From Candidatus Hydrogenedens sp. (GTDB lineage Bacteria > Hydrogenedentota > Hydrogenedentia > Hydrogenedentales > Hydrogenedentaceae): a DNA stretch of 64,000 bases. How positions within the stretch are numbered: the first letter of the stretch is position 1; every line of letters starts with the position of its first letter. This document shows positions 14,301 through 61,789 of this stretch, piece by piece. The stretch is taken from the NCBI GenBank assembly GCA_049968235.1, contig JBMFRC010000003.1:203463-267462 (forward strand), in the 5' to 3' direction. The notes under the pieces are model-generated. The model saw only the letters and a program-made list of their open reading frames with translations. It made no database searches and was not told where the DNA came from. The translations under genes and the position numbers were made by a program.

Positions 14301-16601
14301 ATGACCATGCGAGGATATTTTATCCCTTTAATTTTTCTCTTATCCTTTACAGCAATTCTTCCTTCTTTTGCAGGCGAGAAAATTAAATATCAATTAACAA
14401 TTAAGAGAGTTGGTGATGAAGGGATTGTAAATCCTGGAATTGGGACTTTCTACTATGATGCAGGGACCACTGTTTTTCTCAACGCTATTCCGACTGCAGA
14501 CTGGGCATTTGACCACTGGGAAGGTGCTGTTTCAGGGACAGACTTATTTACTCAAGTGCTGATGGACAAACCAAGGACAGTTACCGCTGTTTTTGTACCA
14601 GCACAATGGAGGCTGACCATTGAGCATAGTGGGAATGCTACCGGTACAACTTTCCCTGCTCCCGGGGTCTATGGATTTTTAGATGGTAGAACGGTAGGAG
14701 TTAGCTCTGGCACTTCGCCGGGTGTATATTTTGGAGGCTGGAGGGGTGATGTGATAAGTAATGAAGAATTTGTACAGGTGGTTATGAATTCTGACAAATA
14801 TATAAATGCACGATTCACGGATACAGGGTATACCCTTAGTATAAGTGTAATTGGTCCGGGAGGAACAACCCCCTGGCAAGGGACAGTGCATCGGTATTCA
14901 GAAGGATTATCTATATCTGTTGTATCTTATTCAACAAATCCTTTATGGCGGTTTGACCATTGGGAAGGTGATATAGGCGATAACGAATCACGATATTATA
15001 TCCTGTTGCAACTAACTATGGACCAGGACCGAAATATCACCGCGGTATTCATTGAGAAGCCATATTATAACCTTACATTGGAAATCGTTGGCGAAGGAGG
15101 TGTTTCTTTTCAACAGGGCTTTGATGACCCCGTAACTCTATCCACAGGTATCCATGAATTTAGCATTATTGAGTGGACCTATATTCGATGTGAAAAAATA
15201 ATCACTTCACCCACATGGAAATTTCTCCACTGGGAAGGAGATTTTGGTGATACATTGCCTACCTATTATCGATGTGCTTTCTCTATGGACAAAAACCGTT
15301 ATGTCCGTTGCATTTTTACCAATTTGACACAGGTCCCTGATGTTATAGGAACACCTCAAAATATCGCAGAAACGACCATTATAAATGGAGATTTGATAGT
15401 CGGTAACATTACAGAAATATGTAATGATAATTATGTATCAGGATATGTAATAGACCAATATCCACCTGCAGGGACTACTGTAGAAATAGGAAATTCTGTA
15501 TCACTCTGGGTTTCCACAGGACCTTGTCCTGTATCAGTGCCAAATCTTATCGGATTAACCATAGAAGAGGCAGAGAATGCAATAAATAGTGCCGGCTTAA
15601 CGCTGGGTAATGTGATGAACTCGTGTAATGATGAAATTGGGATGGGAATAGTATTTGGTCAAAATCCATTAGCGGGAGAGCAATTATTCCCCGGTAGTTC
15701 TGTAAATATTGAGGTATCTTCAGGACCCTGCCCGGCGGAAGGGATTATAGAAGGTGAAGGGATGGAGGAAGGTATGCCCGAAGGAGAAGGGACACCCGAA
15801 GGAGAGGTATGCGTCTGGATGGGAGCTTGTCCTAACTTTAGTTATGAAGGAATAAAAATGGGATATTTTGTCGGACAATTATGGAATAACTGCGATATTA
15901 ATCAATCCGAAATCCCCGATGCATGGGAGATAGAAATTGTTAAGTATTTGCTGTGCAATCCTCAGGGAATATGGGAGGATAAATTTATTTGTAAATTTAT
16001 TGAAAATTATAATATTCTGGCAACGGAGTCTTTATTCCATACAACTTATTATTCCTTCCGGCATATTTTAACAGGACTTCTTACTATAGGAACCAATATG
16101 GATATTTTAAGAAACACTTTCTTTCTAACCAAAAACTATTATCCATTTGAATATCCATCGGATAATTTCCCGTTATTGCCGGATGCGGATATTGATAATG
16201 ATGAATTAACTAATTATGAGGAATACCTCAGGGTAGTCGAACTTAACGGAAGTAACAATGCATTTATTCGGAACATTTTCAATCCTTCGCCTGTTCCTCC
16301 CATTCACTCCGCAGATATAAATCAGAACCATAGAATAGAGTTGACAGAACTACTTCGCATTATTCAATTCTTTAATTCTTCAGGATTCCACTGTGAAAAT
16401 GGGACAGAAGATGGTTATGCGCCGGGTTATGACGAGAGTTTCGATTTTTCATGTGAACAACACACGGCGGATTATTTGCCCCACGATTGGCATATTAGCC
16501 TTGAAGAAATTCTAAGGATGGTTCAGTTTTTCAACGCAGATGGCTATCAGATGTGTCCCTTTATTTCTGAAGATAGTTACTGTCCTATTTTCTCTGAGTA
16601 A
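14301..16601 (+). CDS. large secreted multi-domain surface protein: InlB-B-repeat-like modules, two PASTA domains, E/G-rich acidic linker, C-terminal dockerin/EF-hand-like module
   Basis: Signal peptide. About four repeats of the '(F/W)DHWEGD...TAVF' type (Listeria-Bacteroides repeat-like). PASTA-like 'VPNLIGLTIEEAENAINSAGLTLGNV...' appears twice. 'EGEGMEEGMPEGEGTPEGE' linker. C-terminus has 'DADIDNDELTNYEEY', 'DINQNHRIELTELLRIIQFFN' and 'ISLEEILRMVQFFN'. Confidence 0.6.
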   Translation: MTMRGYFIPLIFLLSFTAILPSFAGEKIKYQLTIKRVGDEGIVNPGIGTFYYDAGTTVFLNAIPTADWAFDHWEGAVSGTDLFTQVLMDKPRTVTAVFVPAQWRLTIEHSGNATGTTFPAPGVYGFLDGRTVGVSSGTSPGVYFGGWRGDVISNEEFVQVVMNSDKYINARFTDTGYTLSISVIGPGGTTPWQGTVHRYSEGLSISVVSYSTNPLWRFDHWEGDIGDNESRYYILLQLTMDQDRNITAVFIEKPYYNLTLEIVGEGGVSFQQGFDDPVTLSTGIHEFSIIEWTYIRCEKIITSPTWKFLHWEGDFGDTLPTYYRCAFSMDKNRYVRCIFTNLTQVPDVIGTPQNIAETTIINGDLIVGNITEICNDNYVSGYVIDQYPPAGTTVEIGNSVSLWVSTGPCPVSVPNLIGLTIEEAENAINSAGLTLGNVMNSCNDEIGMGIVFGQNPLAGEQLFPGSSVNIEVSSGPCPAEGIIEGEGMEEGMPEGEGTPEGEVCVWMGACPNFSYEGIKMGYFVGQLWNNCDINQSEIPDAWEIEIVKYLLCNPQGIWEDKFICKFIENYNILATESLFHTTYYSFRHILTGLLTIGTNMDILRNTFFLTKNYYPFEYPSDNFPLLPDADIDNDELTNYEEYLRVVELNGSNNAFIRNIFNPSPVPPIHSADINQNHRIELTELLRIIQFFNSSGFHCENGTEDGYAPGYDESFDFSCEQHTADYLPHDWHISLEEILRMVQFFNADGYQMCPFISEDSYCPIFSE

Positions 16602-16697: not shown

Positions 16698-17858
16698 ATG
16701 AAGAATAAACTGCTTTTTTTATGCTTATTTATTTCCCTGATAAATATGCAGTCCGCTATTCACGCGGAAGTGATTTTTGAAAAAGATTTCAAAACAAGTA
16801 GTATTCCTGAAACAAAAATTATCCGTTACAGAGTACTAAGTCATAATGACGAAAAAAAGGGCTATACTTTTTCATTTCTGGGGAAAGTTCTGAAAGGACA
16901 GGTTACTATTCAGATTGAAGATACTGAGAAAAACATTATTGAAAAAAGGGAAATTCCCGCTTTTTCTTTACTACACTGGCATTTTACATTGTCCGAAGAA
17001 AAAGGACTGGATAATATTTATATATCCTTACACCTAAAGGATATGGTTGGAAATATTTACTCCGTAGTTGTTCCCACTATACAAAGCCAGCAGGTTTACA
17101 TTGTTCAGGGGATAGTCGTATCTATGAACCTCCTTTTATTTTTCGCATGTATATATATCATCAGAAGAAAATCCCTTTATCTCTCATGGTGGGGTTGGGG
17201 AATACTGCTTGGGATTTCTGCAAAGGTTCTCTTTTATATTGTTGATTATATTGACTTTTTACCCACCACACTATTAATCAATTCTACAACCCTTGAAGAT
17301 GACCTTTCGGATTATCTTTTCTCTATCTATATCTCTTTACGGGAAACGGCTATCCTTTTCTTGATATTAGGCTTCTTCTCAAGCAGGTTATTATCGTTAG
17401 AACATAAAAAACAAATGGCTATAAGCATTTCTCTGGGTATTGCTCTTATATTCTTAACTTTCACCATTTTTGAGGGAGTATTACGAACATTTCAAATTAT
17501 GCCATCATTAAATATATCTCCCTATTCCCTGGCTCTCTTTTCTGTGCAGATAGCACGAACACCCTTTTATTACTTCCTCATTCCATTAAAAAATATAATT
17601 CTATTGATATTATGGTTTAGTGCTTTTTATCTAGCACTATCCGGTGCAATACAGGCAGAAAGAAGAACGGTAATTCGCGGAATATTAATATTTATCTTCA
17701 CAGAAGCAGTGCTCGTCTATTTTGAAAATTCCTATTTCATCTATCATAACTCCAGTTGGTGGGTTGTAGTTTCGGTATTAGTAATTAGTTTTTTCCCTGT
17801 GTTCATTTACAAATTCAAAACGTTTATATACGCCGAACCATCTCCCATCAAAAAATAA
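16698..17858 (+). CDS. membrane protein with N-terminal extracytoplasmic domain plus 7-8 TM helices (7TMR-DISM-like, no cytoplasmic output domain)
   Basis: Signal peptide, ~120-aa periplasmic domain, then seven to eight hydrophobic helices. The protein ends shortly after the last TM. Confidence 0.45.
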   Translation: MKNKLLFLCLFISLINMQSAIHAEVIFEKDFKTSSIPETKIIRYRVLSHNDEKKGYTFSFLGKVLKGQVTIQIEDTEKNIIEKREIPAFSLLHWHFTLSEEKGLDNIYISLHLKDMVGNIYSVVVPTIQSQQVYIVQGIVVSMNLLLFFACIYIIRRKSLYLSWWGWGILLGISAKVLFYIVDYIDFLPTTLLINSTTLEDDLSDYLFSIYISLRETAILFLILGFFSSRLLSLEHKKQMAISISLGIALIFLTFTIFEGVLRTFQIMPSLNISPYSLALFSVQIARTPFYYFLIPLKNIILLILWFSAFYLALSGAIQAERRTVIRGILIFIFTEAVLVYFENSYFIYHNSSWWVVVSVLVISFFPVFIYKFKTFIYAEPSPIKK

Positions 17859-28137: not shown

Positions 28138-29550
28138 ATGATTGCTTGTGGGATAGATTACGGGACAACTAACACCAGTGTTGCGATTGCAAAAGAGAAT
28201 GGGCAGATTCAGGTTATAGAACTGGACGAGGAAAATGTTCCCTCGACCTCACTACCTTCTCTTGTTTATATCGGGTCTGATGGCTCTATTTTTACGGGGC
28301 GAAAAGCAGCCAATGTGTTTATTCAGAACAATGTTGGACGAGAAGTTATCATGCAATCGGAAGAAACGGGGCTGGAAATATCATCTATTAGCAGGGCAGA
28401 GCCGGATAAAAGCGAATTTTATAATCCGAATTTAACAGACCCAGATATTCTGGAAAAAATATCTATAAAGACGCTTGTAGATGTGAACATGCCTGGACGA
28501 TTGTTTCAATCCCTTAAAACAAAGTTAAAATATGTGGACTTCAAAGGAACCGATGTTTTCGGAAAGCATTACCAGATAGAGGAATTGGTCTCCCTTATTT
28601 TGAAACGATGTAAAGAAAAAGCGGAGCAATATGTTTCTGATACGATTGATATTGCGGTAATAGGTAGACCCGTCCTTTTCTCTCATAGCGAATTTGAGGA
28701 CCAGATAGCAGAACGAAGATTGCGAAATGCGGGAATGATTGCTGGATTTAAGGATGTAATTTTTTTCTATGAGCCCGTATCCGCTTCAATTGAATATATA
28801 AGCACAACATCCACGGAAGACCAGTTGGTAATGGTTGTGGATATTGGTGGAGGAACCTGTGATATTTGTATTATGAAATTTGAAAAGGCAGAGACGATAG
28901 AGGAGAAACTCAAACGAAGTGCGGTGCTATCTATTTCCGGAGATACTGTCGCCGGGGATATGATTGATAAAGAGATTATTCGCAAACGATTGTTCCATTA
29001 TTTCGGTAGTACGGCAAGATATGGTCAGAATCATCTTCCCATGCCTAAAAACATCTTAAATGTTGTATTGGATTGGCAAAATTTGTATCGACTAAATACA
29101 GAAGAAACCATTAACTGGTTGATAGCGGTAGAAACTTTTAGTGACCAGCCGGAAGCCATAAGGGCTTTACGATTATTAATCCAGAAGAACTGTGGCTATC
29201 CTCTGGCTTTAGCCGTTGAAAAGGCAAAGAAAGAATTAAGTTTTCAAGAACAGGCAACAGTTCATTTCCAATTTGAAGGGTTGGACATAGAGGAAACAAT
29301 TAATCGGGATGAATTCAGCAAAATTATCGAGGATATTTTAGAGCAGATTCATTCTTTAATTGTGGAAGCGGAACAGAAAGCAGGAGTGAAACCTGGCGAT
29401 ATTAACCTGGTTCTAACTACCGGTGGCACCTGTCTTATCCCGGCAATACAAAAGATGCTACAAGAACGATATGGTTCATATCGAATTATTTCACGCGATA
29501 CATTTACCAGTGTTGCCCGTGGTTTAGCGGTGGTCAGCCGTTTTCTATAA
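28138..29550 (+). CDS. Hsp70-family ATPase lacking a canonical substrate-binding domain (YegD-like)
   Basis: Phosphate-1 'IACGIDYGTTNTSVAIA', phosphate-2 'DIGGGTCDICIM', adenosine motif. 470 aa, too short for the DnaK SBD. Confidence 0.7.
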   Translation: MIACGIDYGTTNTSVAIAKENGQIQVIELDEENVPSTSLPSLVYIGSDGSIFTGRKAANVFIQNNVGREVIMQSEETGLEISSISRAEPDKSEFYNPNLTDPDILEKISIKTLVDVNMPGRLFQSLKTKLKYVDFKGTDVFGKHYQIEELVSLILKRCKEKAEQYVSDTIDIAVIGRPVLFSHSEFEDQIAERRLRNAGMIAGFKDVIFFYEPVSASIEYISTTSTEDQLVMVVDIGGGTCDICIMKFEKAETIEEKLKRSAVLSISGDTVAGDMIDKEIIRKRLFHYFGSTARYGQNHLPMPKNILNVVLDWQNLYRLNTEETINWLIAVETFSDQPEAIRALRLLIQKNCGYPLALAVEKAKKELSFQEQATVHFQFEGLDIEETINRDEFSKIIEDILEQIHSLIVEAEQKAGVKPGDINLVLTTGGTCLIPAIQKMLQERYGSYRIISRDTFTSVARGLAVVSRFL

Positions 29551-29600: not shown

Positions 29601-30971
29601 ATGAGCATGAACTTTTCAGGAAACACATCAAAAGTCCCGATGATTCAAACAACGGCCGGAGACTGGGAATCTGAACGCTTTTCACGAAGACAAAATTTTA
29701 TAGAAGCAATGGTGGTTATGCTTATTATTCTTTGTGCCTTATGGCTGGTAGCCTATCCTTTCGGTGTGGTGATGAAAATACAAGCGGTCAACTTCATCGT
29801 AAATTTACTGCTGGTATTAGGTGGGGCATATCTCCTCTTTGTAGCACCCTTTTTACATAAAGATACAGCCCAATCATGGGGACTGGGAAATCCGGTTCAA
29901 TATTGGCATTTGATTACAAACGGTCCAATGATAAAAAGAGCAGTAATTCTCATATCCTCTGTTACCGTTTTTATAGGGCTGAATATTGTTAATTATCGAC
30001 AATGGCATTATGTTGCTCGTTTTTTCCAGATGCAGGCATTGGCACGCACTTTCGGATTGTCTGTAGATGTTTATCAATTACCACACCATTTCCCCGGTGT
30101 GCTTTTTGTATTCCTTTTTGGTGTCATTATATCCGCCCTGATTACCTTTTGTGCTATCCGTTATGATAATTTTCACACAGCATTTCGAACTGCAATGATT
30201 ATCGCATTGCCTTTGCTGATAGTAATTTTTATTTCTGCCTATATTCAACGGGGAATGGATGCTTTTCAGCATCTCAGTTTTTCTCGCTGGGCATTGGGGG
30301 TATTTGGCTATATTTTCTGGGGTTTCGTTCAACAACTATTATTCAGTTCCTATTTTGGCACGCGATTTCGTAAAGCATTTGCACCCTCCAATCATCCTTC
30401 CAACAAAGTAACCGGAGAAGAACAAATAAAGAAATCTCTTATGTTTGGTATTTGGGGTGCTTTGGGAGCAATTGTCTTTACCTGCCTTAGTATTTCCATT
30501 GCTTATGGGACAAAGGCGATACCCTCTATAACGGTTTGGATTCAAATTATTCTCTGGTTAACGGTTTTCTTCTTCCCTATGGGTTTTATTTATGGCTATT
30601 TTTACTGTAAAGATAAAAAAAGGATGCTGGTCGCAACTTTAAGTGCTTCCTGCTTTGGTATGATACACATTGATTCGTATGGATTGGTAGCAGTCACCTG
30701 GATGTTAGGAATCATGCTGGTATATGTTTTTATGGAAGAGAAAAATCGCAATTTAGTAGCCTTAGGATTTATCCATGGATTGTTAGGGAGCACTTTTGGA
30801 GAAATGTTCTCAAAAAGTTCTGCGGGTGTCTTAAATGTAGATTATTCTGTTGGTCCCTGGAATGTAGAAGAACCAACATGGGGGGTACTCATTATACCTG
30901 TAATTGTTATCGTTATATATGTCTTTATATTTATAACTTATCTAAACAAAGCACCCGAGGCAAAAAGTTAG
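29601..30971 (+). CDS. polytopic membrane protein (possible CPBP/Abi-type intramembrane metalloprotease fold)
   Basis: About 12 TM helices. Weak 'EEKNR...FIHG' arrangement reminiscent of CPBP motifs 1 and 2. Confidence 0.4.
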   Translation: MSMNFSGNTSKVPMIQTTAGDWESERFSRRQNFIEAMVVMLIILCALWLVAYPFGVVMKIQAVNFIVNLLLVLGGAYLLFVAPFLHKDTAQSWGLGNPVQYWHLITNGPMIKRAVILISSVTVFIGLNIVNYRQWHYVARFFQMQALARTFGLSVDVYQLPHHFPGVLFVFLFGVIISALITFCAIRYDNFHTAFRTAMIIALPLLIVIFISAYIQRGMDAFQHLSFSRWALGVFGYIFWGFVQQLLFSSYFGTRFRKAFAPSNHPSNKVTGEEQIKKSLMFGIWGALGAIVFTCLSISIAYGTKAIPSITVWIQIILWLTVFFFPMGFIYGYFYCKDKKRMLVATLSASCFGMIHIDSYGLVAVTWMLGIMLVYVFMEEKNRNLVALGFIHGLLGSTFGEMFSKSSAGVLNVDYSVGPWNVEEPTWGVLIIPVIVIVIYVFIFITYLNKAPEAKS

Positions 30972-33631: not shown

Positions 33632-35293
33632 TTAAATGCGGTCAAAGATTTTTTCGATGACTTCAATAATATGAGTTGGGCAGGCGTAAACACCTTTTAC
33701 AGGTAGGGTAAGGATTCTTTCTACTTCTTGTAATAAATAAGTATTATCCGGTTCCGTTGTTGATAGTAAAACTTGAGTTGTGTCGTTGATTCGTAAGGGG
33801 AGTAATAGATATTTCATACAAAAAGTGTAATCAAGTAAATATGCTTGTTCGATGTTTACATGCTTTTCATTTATAAATAATAAGGGGATATTTTTTTGTA
33901 GGGACAACGTCTGAAATAGAACAATTTCATCAATCCATCCCTGTTCTAATAATAAGGTTCCTAATCGGCAATATCGTTTATCTTTCTGTAAAATAAGCAT
34001 TTCTTCCAATTGGGTATTTGTAATGAAGTTTGCTTTAACGAGCAATTCTCCTAATTTTAAATAAGGTTTTTCTGCCTCTTGAAGTGCCATAACCAAACGG
34101 ATGTAAGTTTCTTCATATTTTCTTTTTCCTTCATAATTCTGTTCGTCTCCCAACAGCATCAATTGCTCCTGCAATGTTTCTACCTGATATTGCCAGTATT
34201 TCACGGATTCAGATAGTTCTTCATTGCGTTTCATAGAAACTCTGTATTCCTGCTGGAAACGCTCTTTTTCTTTTTTCAGTCCTTCGATTGTTCGCAAGAG
34301 TTCCTTACATTGTTCAATAATTTCTTGATGTTTTTGCTCCAATTTTTGCTGTTGTTCTTCCTGTTTCTTTTGTCCCAATATTGCCTTTGCCATCTCTGTG
34401 GATAATTTTTGATTTTCTTTGAGAAGTACTTCTTTTTCTTTTATCAATTTATCTAATAATTGCTGTTGCGTATCAATGTAAGTTTTTAATGTTGTGATAT
34501 TCGCCTGTAATTGTGCAATTTGCGTGTTAAGTTGGTTGTTTTCAAATTGAGATTTTTTAATTTCATCTTCTTTGTCTTTCAATAGCAACTTTTGTTTTGA
34601 CAATGTATCTTCTAACATCTGTTCTGTACTTTCTAATTCTGCTATCCGAACTAGGGCATTGCTTAAATCTACAGTTGTAGTCTGTATTTTTTTTATAAGG
34701 TTGGAAATTATTTCCTCCGATTCAGCATGACGGGTTGCTATTTCTATATTTTCCTGTTCCTTTTGATGAAGTTTTTCCTGTAATTCCCTTACCTTTGTTT
34801 TTTCTGCATGGTGGTCCACCTGGGTAGAATATAATTGCTGTTCCAATGCCTTTGAGGATAGTTCCGTTTCCTGCAATTGTTTTTTAAGGAGTTGTATTTC
34901 TTCATTTAATAAACTTTTTTGCTGTTCAAATCTTTTTTTATCCTCTTGAAGGTTCTGTATTACCTGCTGTAATTGCTCGTTTTGTTTTTGTTCCTGCAGT
35001 AGTTCCGATTTTAATTCCATTAAATCCAGAAGAAAATTATTCAATTGTTCGCTAAGGAAAGAAAGTGTTGATGAAGATGTGTCTTTTTCTTGTTTATCAG
35101 CAGGTATTGTTGGATATGTATGATAAATCTTCGATTTTTTCTTTTCTTCTCCATAACCACTTCCGCCTAACGGTGAGTAAATAATATGAAACTTCGGAGT
35201 AAAGATGGATTGCAAAAGGAAGGTGAGGTCTTTTTTTAGATAAGGAAGATATGTCTGGCTTCTTCTAACGAAATATTTAGTAAATGAGTTCAT
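33632..35293 (-). CDS. long coiled-coil protein with C-terminal MshEN-type (T2SSE_N) c-di-GMP-binding domain
   Basis: About 320 aa of heptad-rich Q/E/K/L sequence, then tandem motifs 'KLGELLVKANFITNTQLEEMLILQ' and 'RLGTLLLEQGWIDEIVLFQTLSLQ' (nt ~33896..34057). The second matches RLGxx(L/V/I)(L/V/I)xxG(L/V/I)(L/V/I)xxxxLxxxLxxQ exactly. Confidence 0.65.
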   Translation of the reverse strand: MNSFTKYFVRRSQTYLPYLKKDLTFLLQSIFTPKFHIIYSPLGGSGYGEEKKKSKIYHTYPTIPADKQEKDTSSSTLSFLSEQLNNFLLDLMELKSELLQEQKQNEQLQQVIQNLQEDKKRFEQQKSLLNEEIQLLKKQLQETELSSKALEQQLYSTQVDHHAEKTKVRELQEKLHQKEQENIEIATRHAESEEIISNLIKKIQTTTVDLSNALVRIAELESTEQMLEDTLSKQKLLLKDKEDEIKKSQFENNQLNTQIAQLQANITTLKTYIDTQQQLLDKLIKEKEVLLKENQKLSTEMAKAILGQKKQEEQQQKLEQKHQEIIEQCKELLRTIEGLKKEKERFQQEYRVSMKRNEELSESVKYWQYQVETLQEQLMLLGDEQNYEGKRKYEETYIRLVMALQEAEKPYLKLGELLVKANFITNTQLEEMLILQKDKRYCRLGTLLLEQGWIDEIVLFQTLSLQKNIPLLFINEKHVNIEQAYLLDYTFCMKYLLLPLRINDTTQVLLSTTEPDNTYLLQEVERILTLPVKGVYACPTHIIEVIEKIFDRI

Positions 35294-36231
35294 GGTTTTA
35301 CAGGATTTATAAGTGCCTCTATCAGACTGTTTTCAAATTGTTCTCTATTTTTCCATGTTAAGGCACAACGCACGGGTCTTCCGTTATCATCCGGATAGGT
35401 CTTTCCTTCTTTATCAATGGACAGGTTCAAGGTTTTAATTTCTACAGCCTCTTCGGACCATGTGCAATAACCTGCTAATGTATCATATAACACACTACTT
35501 TCATCTTTAGGATAATGTTTGCGATTTGTCCAGATGTTATAGTTTTCAATGACTACTTTTGCGAATGGGGATTGTGATTCCTCAATCTTTCGATAGTTAT
35601 CTCCTTTTAGAATGATAGTCCCGCAGGTATCTAATGGGATAATGGTAATCTCCCAAGGTGCGGAAAAGACCTTTCGGGCGCTTTCCACATCTCTACAAAT
35701 ATTGTATTCGCAATCTCTACTGTTCTTCCCGCCATATCCGATATAAACACTTCCTGCCATAGAAACAATTCGTGCTTTTTGAGCAATATCCGGTGCCATT
35801 TCTAAAGCCTTAGCAATATTCATCATAGGACCTATAACACAAAGTATGGTGGGTTCCTGAGCACTCCGTATCATTTCAATCATAGTTTTTACACCCTCTT
35901 CATGGATTTTCCCTTTATAATTGTCCAATGAATATTTTTCTATCCATGATAACTGATTAATATCTTTATTACTTGTTTTTACCCCTTTACCTATGGGAAT
36001 ATCTGTCCTTTCGACAGTTTCCAGCATTCGTGCCACCAGTTTTACCTTAGTTTCTGTGTTATCGCATGCAGTTACAATAAGTTTCAGATCTACTTTCCCC
36101 GCACCTAAAAGATGCATCAATGCCCATGTATCGTCAATATCGTCACCAATGTCCGTATCGAGAATAATTTGAGGCAGAGACATTGCACTGCATGAAAATA
36201 GCCATAGTAGGAGAAATAGATATTTATTCAT
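35290..36231 (-). CDS. inosine-uridine preferring nucleoside hydrolase family protein (secreted)
   Basis: Signal peptide followed by the IUNH signature 'ILDTDIGDDIDD'. Its start overlaps the stop of the downstream MshEN gene (ATGA). Confidence 0.8.
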   Translation of the reverse strand: MNKYLFLLLWLFSCSAMSLPQIILDTDIGDDIDDTWALMHLLGAGKVDLKLIVTACDNTETKVKLVARMLETVERTDIPIGKGVKTSNKDINQLSWIEKYSLDNYKGKIHEEGVKTMIEMIRSAQEPTILCVIGPMMNIAKALEMAPDIAQKARIVSMAGSVYIGYGGKNSRDCEYNICRDVESARKVFSAPWEITIIPLDTCGTIILKGDNYRKIEESQSPFAKVVIENYNIWTNRKHYPKDESSVLYDTLAGYCTWSEEAVEIKTLNLSIDKEGKTYPDDNGRPVRCALTWKNREQFENSLIEALINPVKP

Positions 36232-36247
36232 ACGAAATCCCTTATAG

Positions 36248-37204
36248 TTATGGGGTTATTAATTTTCCAGCCAGTAATAACGCACCTACAAGAACCACCT
36301 GTTCCCCTAATTCACAAGGAGATATTTCATACTGGTTGCGAAATGGAGTAAATACTAATCGGTCAACGACCGCACGAATTCGGTTTAAAAGCACATCCCC
36401 CATTAATGATACTCCCCCTCCTAACGCAATTTTTTCAGGATGGAATAATGTAATAACATTGGAGATAGCAATACCAACCGATTGAGCAATACGGTCTAAT
36501 TCTTCACAGGCAAAAGAGTCTTCCTCCTCCGCACACTTACCTAAAAGGACACAGGTCATAAGGTTGAGATTCCCTCCTGTTTTTGCCCACAAAGAACTTT
36601 TTTGTGGCACATAATTTTCCGTTTGTAATCTTCGTTCAATGCTCCAGCCCGAACAGATATTTTCCAGTTTATTGTAGGCACCCCGTTCTTCTTGTGTCCA
36701 ATCGGGAACATAAGTATGACCTATTTCTCCAGCGCCCAATCCCTGTCCATCATGCAATTTCCCATCTATAATAAGGGCTCCGCCAATGCCACTGCCAATA
36801 TTCATATAAAAAAAGTTTCGTGTCCCTTTACCTCTGCCACAAACAAATTCAGCCCAGCCTGCAGAATTTGCATCATTTGCAAGAACTGTCGGAATGGAAA
36901 AGGTATCTTCGAACCATTGTCGGAGAGGGAAACCTTGCCAGCCCGTGATTTGATGTGAAATCAGAACTTTCCCCTCAACACTATCAACAGGTCCACCAAA
37001 GCCTATTCCAATACTTTGCACTCGTTGTCCTTCTTGCTCCGCTTTTTGAATTTGATTTTTTGTCGTTTCTGTTACCCAATCTAAAATCTCGCGGGACTGC
37101 CAATCTTTTTGAACCGTTCCACGCTCTAAATGATAAATATTCCCTTTTTCATCACCTAAAACAACCTGCAATTTTGTTCCACCAATTTCAATCCCTATCA
37201 ACAT
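36248..37204 (-). CDS. ROK family sugar kinase (glucokinase-like)
   Basis: 'MLIGIEIGGTKLQVV' phosphate-1 motif, ROK 'GxGxGGA' core 'NIGSGIGGALIIDGKL', 'CSGW'. Confidence 0.8.
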   Translation of the reverse strand: MLIGIEIGGTKLQVVLGDEKGNIYHLERGTVQKDWQSREILDWVTETTKNQIQKAEQEGQRVQSIGIGFGGPVDSVEGKVLISHQITGWQGFPLRQWFEDTFSIPTVLANDANSAGWAEFVCGRGKGTRNFFYMNIGSGIGGALIIDGKLHDGQGLGAGEIGHTYVPDWTQEERGAYNKLENICSGWSIERRLQTENYVPQKSSLWAKTGGNLNLMTCVLLGKCAEEEDSFACEELDRIAQSVGIAISNVITLFHPEKIALGGGVSLMGDVLLNRIRAVVDRLVFTPFRNQYEISPCELGEQVVLVGALLLAGKLITP

Positions 37205-37222
37205 TATGACTTCCTCTTTTCT

Positions 37223-38266
37223 TTATGAACTCCGGTGTTTGTCTTGTGAAGAACAATGCAGTTTATTATTTAAAGTATCCGTGGACCTCTTCTTCGCACA
37301 AAGAGACGGAATGGATTGTTCCACCTGTGGATTTTTACCTTTCTTCTCAAAATATTCGCGTATTACCTTTTGAGAAAAACTGGGCTCATATTTATTATAA
37401 ATTTCAAATCGTTTTTGCACTTCGGGTAGATAAAATTTGTTGCAATATTTCTTTTCCAGGATATTCAATACAATATGTTTTCGCATTGCCCAGAAATGGG
37501 AATTATTATATGACTCGTCAAATCCGGGGGTTATATAATTTCTCAAATCTATCTGCCGAACCAATTTCCATTTTCCATCTATCCGCTCAATATAGGGAGG
37601 TTTCCCTCCACATAGGTCTCGTGCTAAGCAAAATCCTTGAAAATTTGCCTCCAAATCACCATGAGAGAATATCCCATCAACCAATTTTCCGACGAGATTA
37701 TCTTCATGCACAATTCCCCACATTACAACTTTTTTCATGGCTTCCTCCTCAGTGTATCCTTCCCGCAAATGACGGCAATATCTCTGGTAGTATCTTCTGC
37801 CAAAGCCCAAAAAGTGGCACATTTTATCTATACCGAAATATACATCTCCTACGCGTATCGTTCGAGCCATAGGTAAAAAGAAATAGGGAAAAGCAAATCC
37901 CCGGTGTATACTCATTTTCAAATAAGTTTGCTTGCCTATACTAAGGTCGGGGAATTTTTCAATCTGTGGGTCATGGCGTATGAATGTGCGTAAACGCGAC
38001 CAGCCGAGGAATTGAAAGAAATGGTAATAAATGGCAATGGTTAATTCCTCCGGGTCTTCAATTGGCTTTGTCCGTTTATTGACCTCATCAAGATATTTCG
38101 ATAAAGTCTCATTAAAATAGCAATTCAGTTCATCTGCAGAATCTTTCAATTCAATACCCCAGGTTAGATATTGGTCTGTTTCTGCACTATAAGAAACTGA
38201 TAAAATAAACAAGTTTAGAATGGCAATAGAGGAAATAAAAACAGATTTTTTCATAACACCACCCAA
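37223..38266 (-). CDS. hypothetical secreted protein
   Basis: N-terminal signal peptide. No recognizable motifs. The opposite-strand ORF 37225..37872 is judged spurious. Confidence 0.35.
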   Translation of the reverse strand: MGGVMKKSVFISSIAILNLFILSVSYSAETDQYLTWGIELKDSADELNCYFNETLSKYLDEVNKRTKPIEDPEELTIAIYYHFFQFLGWSRLRTFIRHDPQIEKFPDLSIGKQTYLKMSIHRGFAFPYFFLPMARTIRVGDVYFGIDKMCHFLGFGRRYYQRYCRHLREGYTEEEAMKKVVMWGIVHEDNLVGKLVDGIFSHGDLEANFQGFCLARDLCGGKPPYIERIDGKWKLVRQIDLRNYITPGFDESYNNSHFWAMRKHIVLNILEKKYCNKFYLPEVQKRFEIYNKYEPSFSQKVIREYFEKKGKNPQVEQSIPSLCAKKRSTDTLNNKLHCSSQDKHRSS

Positions 38267-38544: not shown

Positions 38545-38991
38545 ATGATTTCATATATATCCAATTGCAATGTTTTTGAAAGTTGTGCAGATGCCCTAGT
38601 TAATCCTGAAAATTGTAAGGGCGTAATGGGTAAAGGGATTGCCCTCGAATTTAAGAAACGTTTCCCTGAAATTATGCAGATTTATAAGGAAGTTTATAAT
38701 AATAAAAAACTGGCTCCGGGGATTCTTCTATTCTTTCGTGTTGAATTTCAACTCGATTTGTGTGAGGTGAAGAAACCTGCTTTGATTCTTTTCCTAACGA
38801 AAAACCGTTGGAGAGATAAATCAAAAATGGAATGGATAGAAAAGGGGCTTATTTTCTTAAAAGAACATTATAAAGAATGGGAATTAAATTCTGTCACAAT
38901 GCCTCAAATTGGTTGCGGTTTAGGCGGATTATCTGGGAGGCAAGTAAAAGTTGTATCGAAAAATATTTTGCAGAGTAACCTTTACAGATAG
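38545..38991 (+). CDS. macro domain protein (ADP-ribose binding/processing, Macro_2-like)
   Basis: 'ADALVNPENCKGVMGKGIALEF' and 'MPQIGCGLGGLS' correspond to the two macro-domain glycine-rich loops. 148 aa. Confidence 0.55.
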   Translation: MISYISNCNVFESCADALVNPENCKGVMGKGIALEFKKRFPEIMQIYKEVYNNKKLAPGILLFFRVEFQLDLCEVKKPALILFLTKNRWRDKSKMEWIEKGLIFLKEHYKEWELNSVTMPQIGCGLGGLSGRQVKVVSKNILQSNLYR

Positions 38992-39064
38992 AAGTATACA
39001 TCAAGAACGCGATTCCCAGAGATGGTAAGTAAGACTAAATATTAATTCTCTGATGTAAAAAGAG

Positions 39065-39148
39065 TGCCGGAGAGGGGACTTGAACCCCTATGCCCTTGCG
39101 GGCACATGGACCTGAACCATGCGTGTCTGCCAATTCCACCACTCCGGC
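39065..39148 (-). tRNA. tRNA-Leu (anticodon CAG)
   Basis: Reverse complement GCCGGAG-TG-GTGG...: acceptor 7 bp, anticodon stem CATGG/CCATG with loop TTCAGGT, long variable arm, T-loop GGTTCAAGTCC. CCA not encoded. Confidence 0.85.
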
Positions 39149-39315: not shown

Positions 39316-39391
39316 GGACGGGTAGCTCAGGTGGAAGAGCATCGGACTTTTAATCCGGTGGCCGCGGGTTCGAGTCCCGCCCCGTCTACCA
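39316..39391 (+). tRNA. tRNA-Lys (anticodon UUU)
   Basis: GGACGGG-TA-GCTC-AGGTGGA-AGAGC-A-TCGGA-CTTTTAA-TCCGG-TGGCC-GCGGG-TTCGAGT-CCCGC-CCCGTCT-A-CCA. CCA is encoded. Confidence 0.85.
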
Positions 39392-58393: not shown

Positions 58394-61300
58394 TTATGGA
58401 CTTTTCTGAACGCTAAATGTGAATTTAGGACCGAAAAGAGCGCGATTAAAACTCTCCATAGTTAATTGCACGGACGGATTGTTATTCACGGGAATTTCAA
58501 AGTGGAAAGCGGTTGTTTCTCCGCGTTTTAGCGATTTATTTAACGGGACTTGTTGCTGTTTTTGTCCGCTACATATAAGTAAAGAGACATTACCTTCCGA
58601 CAAGTCTTGTTTTGAACCTGCAATCCATTCAGCCTCCCCTAAATTGGTGCATATCACCCGTAACTTTATTTTCTCTGTTTCCTTCGGCAATCGGATTATA
58701 TCGCCTTTATAAACAACTTTTTCCTCTGGATTATTTATCCATACGACAGAGTCAAAAAATGCATCTAAATATTTAGGGGGATTGCTACTGTTATAGGGGA
58801 CATTACCTACCGCTAATAAAGGACAATTTCGTGAATTTGTTCCTGTTGCTTCACTTACTAATTTTGGATTTTTCCCTTCTTCTATCAACCGCCAGAATGT
58901 TTCTTTAATATTGTTATAAATACCATAAACACCCATCGAAGTCTTATCACGGTCAATTTTTATTTCGCAATCATAAGGCTGAAATTTCTGTTTATGAAAA
59001 ATTTTTGTATGTTCCTTTATAACCGTAGTAGCGGGACGATAGGTCCCATCCGGATTAATAATTCCATAATCACTTTTCTCGTTTACACGATAGCCACCGG
59101 GATACCACCAGAAATAGACCCCGTCAGAACCACTTCGGGATAGCATTTTATAAAAATCCGTGAAAAAGTCTGCCTGAAACTTTAATGCACGCTGAGTTTG
59201 TTCCTCATTTTTTCGATAGACACTATATCCTATCTCTGCCCAGATTAAGGGTATATCGGGATTGCAAAATGTGCCATATTTTACCTGAAACCAGCCCGGT
59301 TTGACCATCTCCCAGTTCCCAATTCTACCATAGGCTTCCGGCTCGAGTATATCTACTGCCTGCGACAAGTAATACCAATCATACGGAAGTGGATTTGCCC
59401 AATTGTTGGTAGGATTGGAGCCTTCTGTCATACGGAAACTTACCGCATGATTTGTATCTACAGAACGGACTAATGTCCTTGCTCGATTGTAATATTCGTA
59501 CAGGAGTGTATCCAGAAAACGGCGATACGCACATACCATGACGCGCCATTCGCCATCGTTTGTCATCATCTTATCGGTGGGGTTTGTGATATTCCCATTC
59601 TCATCTCGCTGTATGGGATATTTCCAGTCCTTTTCTGCATTTTCAATAGAGCCATATCGTTCTGTTACCCATCCCGCCCATTCCTTGTCCCAACGTTTTC
59701 TCCCTTCGTGTCCCGGAAACATAGGTTCCCATGCTAAATCATAAGCGAACACCTCATCATGCTCCGATAACCGATAATACTCTATCATTTCCTTTATTTT
59801 ATCCCACTCAAAGTCAAAGGGTGTGCCAGGTCGCAAAGATAAATTGACCTTCAATCCTAACCGGTCTGCACGATACAACAAATCAAGCAGGTTCTGGTCT
59901 TTCATTACATCGTGATACTGAAATACACTGATGGAATTCAGCCCTATTCCCGCAATCCGTTCTAAATCGCGTTGAATAACCCATGGATCGTATGCTTCTG
60001 CTCCCATCCAATATTCGAAATAATGCCACCACTCTACACCTATTCCTGAGGAAGGCATATAGTTTACCCCATGCGGACACCAACGCTTCCCACGATAGAT
60101 AAAATCACCCCGCTTCACCTTGACAAATTCTTTTTTTGTTCGTGGTTTCCAGCAATTTAACTCGTGATATACATAATCTTTGGTTTCCCCATTTACAATA
60201 AGATAACATTCCACCCTGACATTGTCCCCTGCAATTTGCGGATAAGGGATACTTTCTTCAATTCGAGATATTTGCTGTTTGCCCGGTTGGATAGGCAAAT
60301 CATCTTTCCATAATACTTTGCCACTGTTACCCCGTAATAGCAATTGTATATCTGCATTCGGATAATCCGCATCAGATGTCATAAGAACAGTAGCCCCCAT
60401 CGGTAACTCCTGGTCCGAAAAAACAGTGTAATAAGAACATCCCCCATCAACAAAAAAAACACCCTCCCTTAATTTTTTAATCCATTCGGAAAAGTAGTTA
60501 ACAAATTGTTCGCATAAATACCATTCTGGGTCCTGAACAGCAAAACAGGCTTGAACAGAATTTTTATAAGGTTCATTATTGTATATCATCATTGCGGAAA
60601 TAGTCCCACGATAATCCTTTCCCTTGCCCCAGGCATGCATTAACGGGACCCATCGCCATGAACGACGCTTATCAAAACCTCCACCACGAGGACGAGGATG
60701 AATTAATAAAAATTGTTTAGGAACAGGCATCGTCACTTCTTTTAGAGCTAACTCTGTATCCGTTGAAACGAAATGAACATTATTTGATGTATAAAATTTA
60801 TATTCCGGATAGAACAGTTCTAATTTAGGTAGATCTGTCGTCTGTAGGAGTATTTGATACTGCGGTGTCATCGGTGCAGTGCCCAATCCTGCAAACCAGA
60901 ATTCATGCCTGCCACCCGCGATAGGCGAATGGCTCATTGTTAAGCCTATATAAACCTTAACTGCGTTTTGTGGGTTAAATGTCGTTCTTGAACGCGAAGG
61001 AGATTCCCACAACTTAAATCTATCCGGTGTCAGTACATAAAACTGCCAGTCTGTGCTTAATGGAACAGATGTAATCCATCGCGAACCATCTTTCTCTCGC
61101 CATTCAACAGTGAGATAATCTGTTGTCTTAGTCCCTCTGGCAAAAAAAACGGTAACTTGATGATTATCCGGAAACGGATTTTCCAGAGCGGGAGACGCAA
61201 AAATATCCCAGCCTTTCATATCTATAATAAAAGCATGAAAGCCGTGGAAAGTTTGGTTCGGGATAATATCGTTTAATGGCTGATATTCAAAAACGACCGG

Positions 61301-61789
61301 CGATTGCATGTTATTGCTTTCCCGTTGCCAATCTTTCACATCCCCTTCCGCAAAAGAAAACAAATGGGGAAGTAATGAGGAAAAATGTTCCTTAACAAAT
61401 TGTATAGGTTTTACACAACGTTTGCCATCCCATATAAAATCATTATTCCAGAGTGGTGCCCCAAACACCAGTAAATCACCACCTCGTTTTATGAATTCCA
61501 TAATTACAGGAGCGGTCAAAGCAGGTAAAGAAAAACCAGGAACAACTACCAGCAAATCTGTACTATTGAATACATCTGTGTTAGGAATAAAATCCTCTAT
61601 TCGAATATTCTTTGTTTGATATAAATCATTGTTCAAAATAGTAGAAATCTGTTCTCCAATAGAATTCCATTCGGAACTATTATTTGTATACAAAATAAGG
61701 GCATTCGGAATATTCTCAGTAGATAATGCCTCCCTGGATGATAGAAGGAAGAAAAAAAGTATCAAAGATAATCCCAATAAATACCTCAT
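58394..61789 (-). CDS. large secreted protein with central TIM-barrel glycoside-hydrolase-like (GH5/GH42-like) region
   Basis: Signal peptide. 'WCPHGVNYMPSSGIGVEWWHY...LERIAGIGLNSISVF...LLDLLYRADRLGLKVNLSL' resembles (beta/alpha)8 cellulase-superfamily hydrolases. Confidence 0.4.
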   Translation of the reverse strand: MRYLLGLSLILFFFLLSSREALSTENIPNALILYTNNSSEWNSIGEQISTILNNDLYQTKNIRIEDFIPNTDVFNSTDLLVVVPGFSLPALTAPVIMEFIKRGGDLLVFGAPLWNNDFIWDGKRCVKPIQFVKEHFSSLLPHLFSFAEGDVKDWQRESNNMQSPVVFEYQPLNDIIPNQTFHGFHAFIIDMKGWDIFASPALENPFPDNHQVTVFFARGTKTTDYLTVEWREKDGSRWITSVPLSTDWQFYVLTPDRFKLWESPSRSRTTFNPQNAVKVYIGLTMSHSPIAGGRHEFWFAGLGTAPMTPQYQILLQTTDLPKLELFYPEYKFYTSNNVHFVSTDTELALKEVTMPVPKQFLLIHPRPRGGGFDKRRSWRWVPLMHAWGKGKDYRGTISAMMIYNNEPYKNSVQACFAVQDPEWYLCEQFVNYFSEWIKKLREGVFFVDGGCSYYTVFSDQELPMGATVLMTSDADYPNADIQLLLRGNSGKVLWKDDLPIQPGKQQISRIEESIPYPQIAGDNVRVECYLIVNGETKDYVYHELNCWKPRTKKEFVKVKRGDFIYRGKRWCPHGVNYMPSSGIGVEWWHYFEYWMGAEAYDPWVIQRDLERIAGIGLNSISVFQYHDVMKDQNLLDLLYRADRLGLKVNLSLRPGTPFDFEWDKIKEMIEYYRLSEHDEVFAYDLAWEPMFPGHEGRKRWDKEWAGWVTERYGSIENAEKDWKYPIQRDENGNITNPTDKMMTNDGEWRVMVCAYRRFLDTLLYEYYNRARTLVRSVDTNHAVSFRMTEGSNPTNNWANPLPYDWYYLSQAVDILEPEAYGRIGNWEMVKPGWFQVKYGTFCNPDIPLIWAEIGYSVYRKNEEQTQRALKFQADFFTDFYKMLSRSGSDGVYFWWYPGGYRVNEKSDYGIINPDGTYRPATTVIKEHTKIFHKQKFQPYDCEIKIDRDKTSMGVYGIYNNIKETFWRLIEEGKNPKLVSEATGTNSRNCPLLAVGNVPYNSSNPPKYLDAFFDSVVWINNPEEKVVYKGDIIRLPKETEKIKLRVICTNLGEAEWIAGSKQDLSEGNVSLLICSGQKQQQVPLNKSLKRGETTAFHFEIPVNNNPSVQLTMESFNRALFGPKFTFSVQKSP

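Follow-up and report, generated by a model that had tools for sequence, protein, structure and literature searches.

A coiled-coil protein of Candidatus Hydrogenedens with a C-terminal MshEN domain is a candidate c-di-GMP effector

The window, by which we mean the whole 64,000-nt stretch of Candidatus Hydrogenedens sp. DNA that was analysed, carries on its minus strand a gene for a 553-residue protein in which a long coiled coil precedes an MshEN domain. This gene, the target of our analysis, is the last of a four-gene operon, and it holds the same position at each orthologous locus with enough flanking sequence. From upstream to downstream, the genes are as follows.

37223..38266, minus strand: first gene of the operon, encoding a protein of about 343 aa whose N-terminus resembles a signal peptide (likely start ATG 38254)
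36248..37204, minus strand: ROK-family sugar kinase (Pfam ROK, 188.9 bits)
35290..36231, minus strand: nucleoside hydrolase (IU_nuc_hydro, Pfam 123 bits) with a hydrophobic N-terminus, directly upstream of the target
33632..35293, minus strand: coiled-coil-MshEN gene, 553 aa plus stop (ORF list, ATG start)

The ATG of the target overlaps the stop codon of the hydrolase gene by 4 nt (ATGA; junction CCATGAAC), as it does at every orthologous locus, and the hydrolase adjoins the target at all loci examined. The target is probably co-transcribed with the hydrolase, the ROK kinase and the secreted protein, with translational coupling. Downstream, only 85 nt separate its stop codon from a convergent gene, and our scan found no terminator-like site between the two; across the operon, the promoter and terminator scan returned sites no more numerous than in shuffled sequence. 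Judging from their signal-peptide-like N-termini, the hydrolase and the first-gene protein are probably exported. The latter has no match in Pfam, NCBIfam or PADLOC and is 80–87% identical across orthologous loci, while the kinase scores 173 bits against the NCBIfam ROK glucokinase subfamily, under the cut-off of 260. The operon partners, of which one is a sugar kinase and the other two appear to be exported, point to no partner or output for the target. A role in a defense system was rejected, as neither the target nor its operon partners match any PADLOC model. Genes for secretion or pili are absent from the neighborhood of the target at every locus examined. A regular-expression scan of the window and related loci for GGDEF, HD-GYP and T2SSE Walker motifs found no diguanylate cyclase or phosphodiesterase gene in the window or at orthologous loci, the only HD-GYP gene being at unrelated loci (L012, L013); because the sequence scanned was limited, this says little about the genome as a whole.

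Within the target protein, we distinguish a head, a rod, a linker and a two-part C-terminal domain.

35066..35293, minus strand: variable N-terminal region, aa 1-76 (alignment, AF2)
34142..35065, minus strand: predicted coiled-coil rod of 44 heptads in one register, aa 77-384, 308 aa (register analysis, AF2)
34058..34141, minus strand: linker, aa 385-412, with a helix at 388-406 and then the helix breaker P410 (AF2 secondary structure)
33896..34057, minus strand: MshEN_N four-helix bundle, aa 413-466, holding both motifs and a 6-aa spacer (NF053729, AF2)
33986..34057, minus strand: candidate c-di-GMP motif 1, KLGELLVKANFITNTQLEEMLILQ, aa 413-436 (translation, 5HTL alignment)
33896..33967, minus strand: candidate c-di-GMP motif 2, RLGTLLLEQGWIDEIVLFQTLSLQ, aa 443-466 (translation, 5HTL alignment)
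33635..33895, minus strand: MshEN_C (T2SSE_N1-type) alpha/beta subdomain, aa 467-553 (PF05157, AF2, Foldseek)

The first-pass annotation, made from the sequence alone, had proposed that the C-terminus adopts the MshEN fold of the T2SS-E N-terminal domain and had named a search with PF05157 as the check. Both the family match and the fold bear this out. A complete MshEN domain with both subdomains occupies aa 413-553. The Pfam model PF05157 matches aa 469-551 with 35.3 bits (cut-off 23.1, E 1.1e-8), the NCBIfam 'c-di-GMP_motif' model NF053729 matches aa 413-466 with 41.6 bits (cut-off 38), and sequence matches in the PDB are to the N-domains of PilF (8e-16), PilB (1e-9) and MshE (5HTL, 1.9e-8). 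An AF2 model of aa 405-553, built for the domain alone on a 101-sequence alignment, has a pLDDT of 93.2 and a pTM of 0.83, and Foldseek places it closest to c-di-GMP-bound PilF GSPII-B (8PKZ, TM 0.76) and MshE (5HTL, TM 0.76–0.80, rmsd 2.7 Å over 139 columns). In this model the MshEN_N helices span residues 414-420, 426-438, 444-451 and 456-467, and MshEN_C consists of three strands and three helices with pLDDT above 90, matching 5HTL, 8PDK and the Xanthomonas PilB-N:PilZ complex 7LKO.

MshEN domains bind c-di-GMP through two 24-residue copies, about five residues apart, of the consensus (R/K/L)LGxx(L/V/I)(L/V/I)xxG(L/V/I)(L/V/I)xxxxLxxxLxxQ, and the ligand is contacted by positions 1-3, 17, 21 and 24 of each copy, 12 in all (PMC5013675). 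Both motifs are present in the target, as had been claimed, yet the second does not fit the consensus at every position: it has W453 in place of L/V/I at position 11, where VcMshE itself has F48. The N-for-G substitution noted in the first motif is likewise real (N422) but is not its sole departure, K413 standing for R and F423 for L/V/I. A strict regular expression fails for both motifs, and the relaxed one of PMC5013675 matches motif 2 only. The spacer between the motifs is 6 aa (KDKRYC), against 5 in MshE. Despite these departures from the consensus, all 12 contact positions are kept in alignments to solved complexes. Relative to 5HTL, motif 1 aligns K413 with R9, L414 with L10, G415 with G11, N422 with G18, L429 with L25, L433 with L29 and Q436 with Q32, and motif 2 aligns R443 with R38, L444 with L39, G445 with G40, G452 with G47, W453 with F48, L459 with L54, L463 with L58 and Q466 with Q61.

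Conservation among the nine orthologues (59–81% identical to the target, with a common C-terminal end) follows the ligand site. K413, L414, G415, L433, Q436, L444, G445, L459, L463 and Q466 occur in 9/9, and L429 and R443 in 7/9. The contact positions are thus conserved in 7–9 of the nine while the two turn-glycine positions drift: N422, in place of the glycine of the alpha1-alpha2 turn, is peculiar to the source genome (G in 6/9), and the second turn glycine (452) is E in 4/9. The contact residues are intact and under purifying selection. By analogy with characterized receptors, K413 would be no defect, because K at position 1 is allowed by the extended (R/K/L)LG consensus and accompanies tighter binding in PilF GSPII-B (KD 6 nM; PMC11731258), as well as nanomolar affinity more generally in PilF GSPII-B, DgPilB2 and CtPilB (PMC11731258). 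In PilF GSPII-A, binding is silenced by a block at helix alpha1, an extended N-capped helix (PMC12002112). In both AF2 models of the target, helix alpha1 starts at residue 414 with no N-terminal extension, and all orthologues have P or G within five residues ahead of K413 (P410 in the target); if the models are right, the domain would therefore avoid this block.

The domain might nonetheless serve only for docking, with no ligand, so that the protein would be a constitutive tether, for example to machinery for type II secretion or type IV pili. Precedents exist in the N1 domains of XpsE and GspE with GspL, in Xanthomonas PilB-N with PilZ and in the non-binding PilF GSPII-A, and docking modules of MshEN fold are among our structural matches, including PilB-N:PilZ (7LKO), GspE-N1:GspL (4PHT) and the partner-binding 2D27/2D28. 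The loss of the turn glycine (N422), E452 in four of the nine orthologues and a spacer one residue longer than that of MshE are all compatible with such a role, and even a perfect, conserved motif is no proof of binding, since it may fail owing to its context (PMC12002112). These same features (N422, E452, the 6-aa spacer and the context dependence of binding) count against reading the protein as a c-di-GMP effector, as do the lack of a cyclase or phosphodiesterase gene in the limited sequence scanned and the uninformative operon partners. However, all ligand-touching residues are kept and show higher conservation than the residues of the structural turns, which would be difficult to account for if no ligand were bound, whereas XpsE and similar non-binders have lost many contact residues (PMC5013675). 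The NCBIfam c-di-GMP_motif model also scores above its cut-off, and the loci examined place no secretion or pilus gene beside the target. We regard a purely docking function as unlikely.

Ahead of the domain lies the predicted rod. The long heptad coiled coil of the first-pass annotation, put there at about 320 aa, is borne out at 308 aa and 44 heptads, with hydrophobic residues at 62% of a and d positions against 16% elsewhere (z = 11.3 versus 2000 shuffles) and no proline between residues 65 and 409. AF2 predicts helices at 76-154 and 169-378 (pLDDT 70–92), and the weak patches of the rod fall at 154-167 and 301-321. Asparagines occupy 'a' positions 105, 182, 252, 294 and 357; N294 and N357 are invariant among orthologues, N182 and N252 nearly so, and the conserved 'a'-position residues include Lys as well. 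Because conserved Asn at 'a' is a signature of parallel, in-register pairing, we infer that two chains associate in this way, and a two-stranded dimer of this length would measure about 45 nm (308 × 0.148 nm). The surface of the rod appears constrained too, as b, c and f positions are 67–74% identical across orthologues, compared with 79–80% at a and d. The full-length AF2 model, a monomer built on a 9-sequence alignment, has a pTM of 0.27 and a pLDDT below 50 in the C-terminal domain.

The rod had also been likened to SMC proteins or myosin tails. This holds for composition only, and kinship to SMC, Rad50 or myosin was rejected: the SMC_prok_B model of NCBIfam reaches 32.8 bits where 567 are required, the Rad50 model reaches 9.4 where 1087 are required, and both sub-threshold matches are confined to the coil. 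The accompanying claim that the coil is attached to no ATPase is sound. MshEN is the sole Pfam match of the target at E ≤ 1 and its last domain, PF00437 (the T2SSE ATPase) has no match, the protein lacks a Walker A motif, and only 85 nt follow before the convergent gene. Neither another enzyme domain nor a transmembrane segment was found in the target.

At the other end of the rod, residues 1-76 begin with a basic and aromatic stretch that gives way to a G/S/K-rich, low-complexity one. This region is 15% identical to distant orthologues, versus 62–69% for the remainder of the protein, has a pLDDT below 50 and lacks about 41 aa in three orthologues. An amphipathic membrane anchor is unsupported here, given this deletion and a modest hydrophobic moment of at most 0.48.

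The orthologous family is limited to the genus Hydrogenedens and one distant relative; scans with the family alignment found three loci on genome contigs and three on metagenome contigs, all in genus-level relatives. Wider homologues came from an exhaustive search of representatives. Among the 150 nearest 50%-identity clusters (the best 150 of 2937 matches), 13 combine a long coiled coil with a C-terminal MshEN domain, and all named clusters of this architecture in that set are from Hydrogenedentota. Their coiled coils range from about 60 to more than 600 residues, the genes lie in contexts unrelated to that of the target, and relatives carry source labels such as 'hypothetical protein', 'PilB, partial' and 'chromosome segregation ATPase'. 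Several of these proteins (P0085, P0123, P0066 and P0194; named members all of the same phylum) resemble the target in joining a coiled coil to a single C-terminal MshEN with no ATPase, but their MshEN domains are 26–36% identical to that of the target, they are between 262 and 1275 aa long in total, their genes have other neighborhoods, and they bear a conserved N-terminal 'DIL-RL--AI--W--EV--AQ' head that the target family lacks. That the target shares this 'W-head' was rejected (hhalign probability 0.2). The literature searched, including Supplementary Table 4 of PMC5013675 and a search on Hydrogenedentes and c-di-GMP, held no description of a coiled-coil-MshEN architecture. The earlier suggestion of an undescribed architecture thus stands for the literature searched but not as a claim of rarity: the combination is common in Hydrogenedentota and no rarity in sequence databases.

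Compared with characterized receptors, the target shares the two-subdomain fold of V. cholerae MshE (5HTL) and T. thermophilus PilF GSPII-B (8PDK/8PKZ; TM 0.76–0.80), including the two successive 24-residue motifs, in which every ligand-contact residue aligns, and, as in the 6-nM binder PilF GSPII-B, a K that opens motif 1 (PMC11731258). In those proteins, however, the domain is N-terminal on hexameric T2SSE ATPases and tunes pilus assembly, whereas the target carries it C-terminally behind a 308-aa coiled coil, with no ATPase, the first turn Gly replaced by N and one more residue in the spacer (6 aa against 5). The placement is closer to that in the E. coli glycosyltransferase NfrB, a non-ATPase whose C-terminal MshEN regulates the module upstream of it (PMC10118264). 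NfrB-type models are also the best partial NCBIfam matches (aa 409-544, E 4e-13 and 8e-12), though the full-length models score 44–48 bits, far under their cut-offs of 537–1170, and the output of NfrB is an inner-membrane enzyme, while the target has neither a catalytic domain nor a transmembrane segment. Myxococcus xanthus FrgA (MshEN-UNK-HEAT) and Pseudomonas aeruginosa PA3740 combine MshEN with regions of no apparent activity and have motility phenotypes (PMC5013675, Supplementary Table 4). They follow the same logic of a receptor on a structural module, but with MshEN at the N-terminus and with HEAT repeats or a divergent N1 domain in place of a heptad coil, and we saw no sequence kinship between these partner regions and the rod. 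Coils also occur with other c-di-GMP receptors: ComFB/CdgR proteins may carry N-terminal PspA-like coiled coils (PMC12448109), and RsiG is built from an antiparallel coil (PMC10118264). As in the target, a small receptor is joined to, or made of, coiled-coil helices, but the ComFB and RsiG folds are unrelated to MshEN and bind the ligand in a different mode.

In its long proline-free heptad rod, probable parallel dimer and short non-helical head, the target further resembles crescentin, FilP, Scy and the cyanobacterial CCRPs. We know of none among these that carries a nucleotide-sensing domain. The first-pass annotation had called the protein filament- or scaffold-forming; in a filament version of this reading, the rod would polymerize into intermediate-filament-like filaments, as crescentin, FilP and other coiled-coil-rich proteins do, with assembly gated by c-di-GMP at the MshEN domain. 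A long, stutter-free rod with conserved surface positions would suit this, and the architecture recurs in the phylum over the full range of rod lengths given above, with two short relatives (P0197 and P0205) having precomputed Pfam matches to PF19220, presumably the crescentin family. Yet the target rod itself matches neither PF19220 nor any other Pfam family at E ≤ 1, intermediate-filament-like models included, and its head shows little conservation and is missing in part from some orthologues. A sequence does not reveal whether a protein forms filaments, and among long coiled coils of bacteria many serve as adaptors or tethers and do not polymerize. We consider a filament distinctly improbable.

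The conserved operon raises a different question, namely whether the target regulates its partners and so couples c-di-GMP to nucleoside or sugar salvage through the hydrolase or the ROK kinase. The four-gene order and the ATGA overlap with the hydrolase are kept down to 60% identity of the target; still, the loci all come from one genus-level group, so this synteny may merely reflect a short divergence time. In addition, the hydrolase and the first-gene protein are probably exported and hence apart from cytoplasmic c-di-GMP, other coiled-coil-MshEN genes lie elsewhere, and the target diverges much faster than its neighbors (60% versus 80–84% identity), all of which makes such regulation very unlikely. 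Finally, the idea that the ORF is an artefact, either a decayed remnant of a PilB- or MshE-type ATPase (as the label 'PilB, partial' given to relatives by some sources might suggest) or a chance ORF in low-complexity DNA, is already refuted by the conservation data, as at least eight independent assemblies carry full-length orthologues that begin and end at the same points, the MshEN domain is C-terminal, the opposite of its place in PilB, protein-level conservation tracks heptad phase, and the convergent gene is only 85 nt beyond the stop.

On balance, we think it probable that the target is a cytoplasmic, non-enzymatic c-di-GMP effector, predicted to be a parallel dimeric rod with two sensors. 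Two chains would pair in parallel and in register to form the rod of about 45 nm, and this pairing would bring the two MshEN domains next to each other at one tip, opposite the variable head with its basic, low-complexity sequence. Every MshEN_N bundle would bind one extended c-di-GMP between its two (K/R)LG...L...L..Q motifs. Binding may remodel the first turn of helix alpha1, as in PilF GSPII-B; in the target, this helix is predicted to start three residues past the P410 breaker, which closes the linker after the rod. MshEN_C could then re-orient against MshEN_N, changing the binding partners of the T2SSE_N1-type subdomain or of the rod surface, much as the C-terminal MshEN of NfrB regulates the module that precedes it (PMC10118264). 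The level of c-di-GMP would in this way govern recruitment, tethering or self-association rather than catalysis. For a dimeric rod of this length with two putative sensors, the most likely role is that of an adaptor or scaffold.

A broader and, in our estimate, rather doubtful extension of this effector model is that Hydrogenedentota possess a phylum-specific set of c-di-GMP-gated rods of varied length, each ending in MshEN, which act as tethers, rulers or filaments in positioning machinery, the target being one branch. If that were true, c-di-GMP would directly control an element resembling a cytoskeleton, and to our knowledge this has been shown for no MshEN protein.

PilZ, MshEN and, more recently, ComFB are c-di-GMP receptor domains widespread over bacterial phyla. 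All MshEN proteins with a worked-out mechanism that we know of have an enzymatic output, either an ATPase or a glycosyltransferase, and an MshEN domain joined solely to a long coiled coil would show the signal directed to a purely structural or localization output. The target is easily testable: its 149-aa domain is soluble, modelled with confidence and open to clear-cut point mutations. Should it bind c-di-GMP with no unusual action, it would lengthen the published list of MshEN architectures by one entry. Hydrogenedentota are known from metagenomes and enrichment cultures, and we know of no c-di-GMP pathway described in the phylum; the coiled-coil-MshEN family is a possible entry point to c-di-GMP signaling there.

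The coiled-coil–MshEN protein is encoded by a single ORF of 553 codons and is the product of a real gene. Its nine orthologues come from independent assemblies, are full-length or nearly so (59–81% identity), and are assigned to Candidatus Hydrogenedens or carry no taxon name; genome and metagenome scans for relatives added Ca. Hydrogenedens terephthalaticus and five further contigs. In every locus with sufficient flank (the window and the orthologous loci L001/L008, L002, L003–L005/L007, L006, L014, L015 and L016), the gene closes a series of four transcribed in one direction:

37223–38266 (−): gene 1, protein of ~343 aa with a signal-peptide-like N-terminus (MKKSVFISSIAILNLFILSVSYSA)
gene 2, ROK sugar kinase
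35290–36231 (−): gene 3, nucleoside hydrolase (IU_nuc_hydro, 123 bits)
33632–35293 (−): gene 4, coiled-coil–MshEN protein, its ATG overlapping the hydrolase stop (ATGA)

The first 76 residues of the fourth protein are poorly conserved, and three orthologues that lack about 41 of them keep the same overlapping ATG start. The stop codon of gene 4 lies 85 nt from the end of a convergent oxidoreductase gene.

The first-pass annotation had placed a T2SS-E N-terminal (MshEN) fold at the C-terminus, and profile searches bear this out. PF05157 (Pfam MshEN) matches aa 469–551 with 35.3 bits (cut-off 23.1), and NF053729, the NCBIfam model of the 53-residue c-di-GMP motif, matches aa 413–466 with 41.6 bits (cut-off 38). 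Among solved structures, the C-terminal 149 aa also match the N-terminal domains of PilF (8e-16), PilB (1e-9) and MshE (5HTL, 1.9e-8). AlphaFold2, given a 101-sequence alignment, modeled this domain (pLDDT 93.2, pTM 0.83) as a four-helix bundle with a unit of three strands and three helices after it. Foldseek ranks c-di-GMP-bound PilF GSPII-B (8PKZ; TM 0.76) and c-di-GMP-bound MshE (5HTL; TM 0.76–0.80, rmsd 2.7 Å over 139 columns) as the best matches to this model. Together these matches identify both MshEN subdomains, and the protein belongs to the MshEN domain family. As had also been proposed, the domain is not attached to an ATPase: no Walker A motif, ATPase or second Pfam domain was found in the protein, and membership of the T2SSE ATPase family was rejected on these grounds.

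All ligand-contacting residues described for VcMshE (PMC5013675) have a counterpart in the protein, as judged by HMMER alignment to 5HTL:

R9: K413
L10: L414
G11: G415
L25: L429
L29: L433
Q32: Q436
R38: R443
L39: L444
G40: G445
L54: L459
L58: L463
Q61: Q466

The two 24-residue motifs (aa 413–436 and 443–466) had been quoted correctly, but motif 2 does not follow the consensus at every position, as had been claimed; position 11, where the consensus has L, V or I, is W453 (F48 in VcMshE). The asparagine reported in place of glycine in motif 1 is present (N422), but K413 and F423 are two further departures. The inter-motif spacer is six residues, not five. K413 is no weakness: the consensus has been widened to (R/K/L)LG, with lysine at that position linked to KD values of 6–53 nM (PMC11731258). 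N422 stands at the glycine of the α1–α2 turn, a position occupied by G in six of nine orthologues and by N, D or E in the remainder, and the second turn glycine is replaced by E in four of the nine. Ligand-contact positions, by comparison, are conserved in 7–9 of the nine orthologues. Fixed contacts with drifting turn residues are the pattern expected of a working site, here a predicted one.

The main rival reading is that the domain binds no ligand and acts in partner docking alone. The PilB-N:PilZ and GspE-N1:GspL complexes are the nearest precedents for MshEN-fold domains as docking modules, and PilF GSPII-A does not bind even with a repaired motif, being blocked by an elongated, N-capped helix α1 and tight inter-subdomain contacts (PMC12002112). 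In both AlphaFold models of our protein helix α1 starts at residue 414, and all orthologues have a Pro or Gly ahead of it, so a block of this type would not be expected at the putative c-di-GMP site. We consider docking alone unlikely and favor c-di-GMP binding as the probable role.

Upstream of this domain, one heptad register runs through aa 77–384. The earlier description of ~320 aa of uninterrupted heptad coiled coil holds for the register (44 heptads over 308 residues); the core is weak at 154–167 and 301–321. Core hydrophobics occupy 62% of a/d positions versus 16% elsewhere (z = 11.3 against 2000 shuffles), the stretch between residues 65 and 409 is free of proline, and AlphaFold places helices at 76–154 and 169–378 (pLDDT 70–92). 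Asparagines lie at 'a' positions 105, 182, 252, 294 and 357; N294 and N357 are invariant, also in the distant relative P0027 (27% identical). Under coiled-coil rules, buried Asn at 'a' favors parallel, in-register dimers, and for this reason the rod is probably such a dimer, in which 308 residues would span ~45 nm. The rod equals the MshEN sensor in conservation, with 65% against 62–69% identity to the distant orthologues. Since conservation at the outward b, c and f positions falls little short of that in the core (67–74% versus 79–80%), the rod surface appears to be in use, which suggests more than a mere spacer. Kinship with SMC and Rad50 was rejected, the matches to these and similar models being far under cut-offs and confined to the coil; the protein is not an SMC or crescentin family member. 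Filament formation is possible.

Across the same genome pairs (L001 and L003 compared with the window), the protein is ~60% identical versus 80–84% for its three operon neighbors (35290–38266), and evolves much faster. Gene 1, with 80–87% identity across all orthologous loci, has no match in Pfam, NCBIfam or PADLOC; its listed TTG start is probably wrong, the ATG at 38254 being more likely. The hydrophobic, signal-like N-terminus of the nucleoside hydrolase (MNKYLFLLLWLFSCSAMS) suggests an exported enzyme, an unusual trait in this family; against the RihA, RihB, RihC and UriH models the hydrolase always scores far under cut-offs. Flanks beyond the operon vary, and no pilus, secretion or c-di-GMP turnover genes were found near the gene at these loci. 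As all loci with the four-gene order come from one genus-level group, synteny is weak evidence for a functional tie.

Outside the operon, the window carries ordinary chromosomal genes (GAPDH, PGK, PNPase, ribosomal protein S1, RecA, purine synthesis genes, transporters), with several side observations:

14301–16601 (+): 766-aa protein with PASTA domains and a divergent InlB B-repeat (Flg_new_2) domain; at E ≤ 1e-5 neither a kinase nor a transpeptidase domain was reported, an unusual setting for PASTA
16698–17858 (+): 386-aa ORF, no match in Pfam or NCBIfam
28138–29550 (+): 470-aa HSP70/actin-fold protein, closest to NCBIfam PRK11678 'molecular chaperone' (190 bits, under the 331 cut-off), with weak MreB and FtsA matches
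29601–30971 (+): 456-aa protein encoded after it, no family match found
38545–38991 (+): 148-aa Macro-domain protein, whose match to the PADLOC DarG model (143 bits) covers model positions 1–132 only
39064–39148 (−): tRNA-Leu(CAG)
39316–39391 (+): tRNA-Lys(TTT)
58394–61789 (−): 1131-aa ORF, no match in Pfam, NCBIfam or PADLOC

A DarT gene adjoins the Macro gene in L001 (5494–6700) and was not found beside it in the window, where the toxin partner is thus missing. The two tRNA genes are flanked by the DarG-like gene on one side and a class-II glutamine amidotransferase gene on the other, at a spot where orthologous loci differ in gene content.

An exhaustive HMMER search of 1.84 billion cluster representatives with the C-terminal domain (E ≤ 1e-3) returned 2937 proteins. 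Among the best 150, 13 (the protein's own cluster included; 302–1275 aa) combine a heptad coiled coil of at least 100 residues with a C-terminal MshEN and lack Walker A, two of them with a second, partial MshEN match upstream; 17 carry Walker A and are ATPase-like, and another 20 are short stand-alone domains. Beyond these, a group of 215–290-aa proteins joins a short coil to MshEN. All taxon-named coil–MshEN proteins retrieved are from Hydrogenedentota, under the source names 'hypothetical protein', 'PilB, partial' or 'chromosome segregation ATPase'. Most GC-rich members have in common the N-terminal head D-I-L-x-R-L-x-x-A-I-x-x-W-x-x-E-V-x-x-A-Q, placed before rods that differ widely in length, as though both ends matter and spacing varies. 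This head-bearing set (P0085, P0123, P0066, P0071, P0080, P0055, P0089, P0174, P0184, P0194 and P0177; 262–1275 aa) is larger than our protein's family, its named members are Hydrogenedentota, and the L and W of the head are invariant. No similarity between the two was found (hhalign probability 0.2), so our family is a separate branch. The unrelated locus L012 (3940–8239; also L013) has one such pair of MshEN genes in tandem (367 and 285 aa); directly downstream of the pair comes an HD-GYP-type phosphodiesterase gene (motif HHEAYDGTGYP), and a divergent PilZ-YkuD gene adjoins. This other metagenomic contig thus holds a small c-di-GMP module, a context that fits a c-di-GMP role for the class.

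Known MshEN fusions include ATPases, glycosyltransferases, REC, HD-GYP, CheA, CheX, cyclases and kinases, and also 'previously uncharacterized domains', e.g. FrgA and PA3740; no coiled-coil entry was found in that architecture table (PMC5013675). Among precedents, FrgA and PA3740 come nearest in their non-enzymatic partner regions, NfrB in that its C-terminal MshEN controls the module upstream of it (PMC10118264), and ComFB proteins, with their PspA-like coiled coils, in general design (PMC12448109). Our literature search found no paper that ties MshEN to coiled-coil, scaffold or cytoskeletal proteins. The first-pass view of an undescribed architecture thus stands as regards the publications searched, but the architecture is recurrent; the overall sequence observation holds once the motif claims are corrected in minor points. 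Because promiscuous MshEN fusion to uncharacterized modules is already reported, and none of these results shows an unusual mechanism, the finding is of moderate interest: coiled-coil–MshEN is an uncharacterized but recurrent architecture of the Hydrogenedentota.
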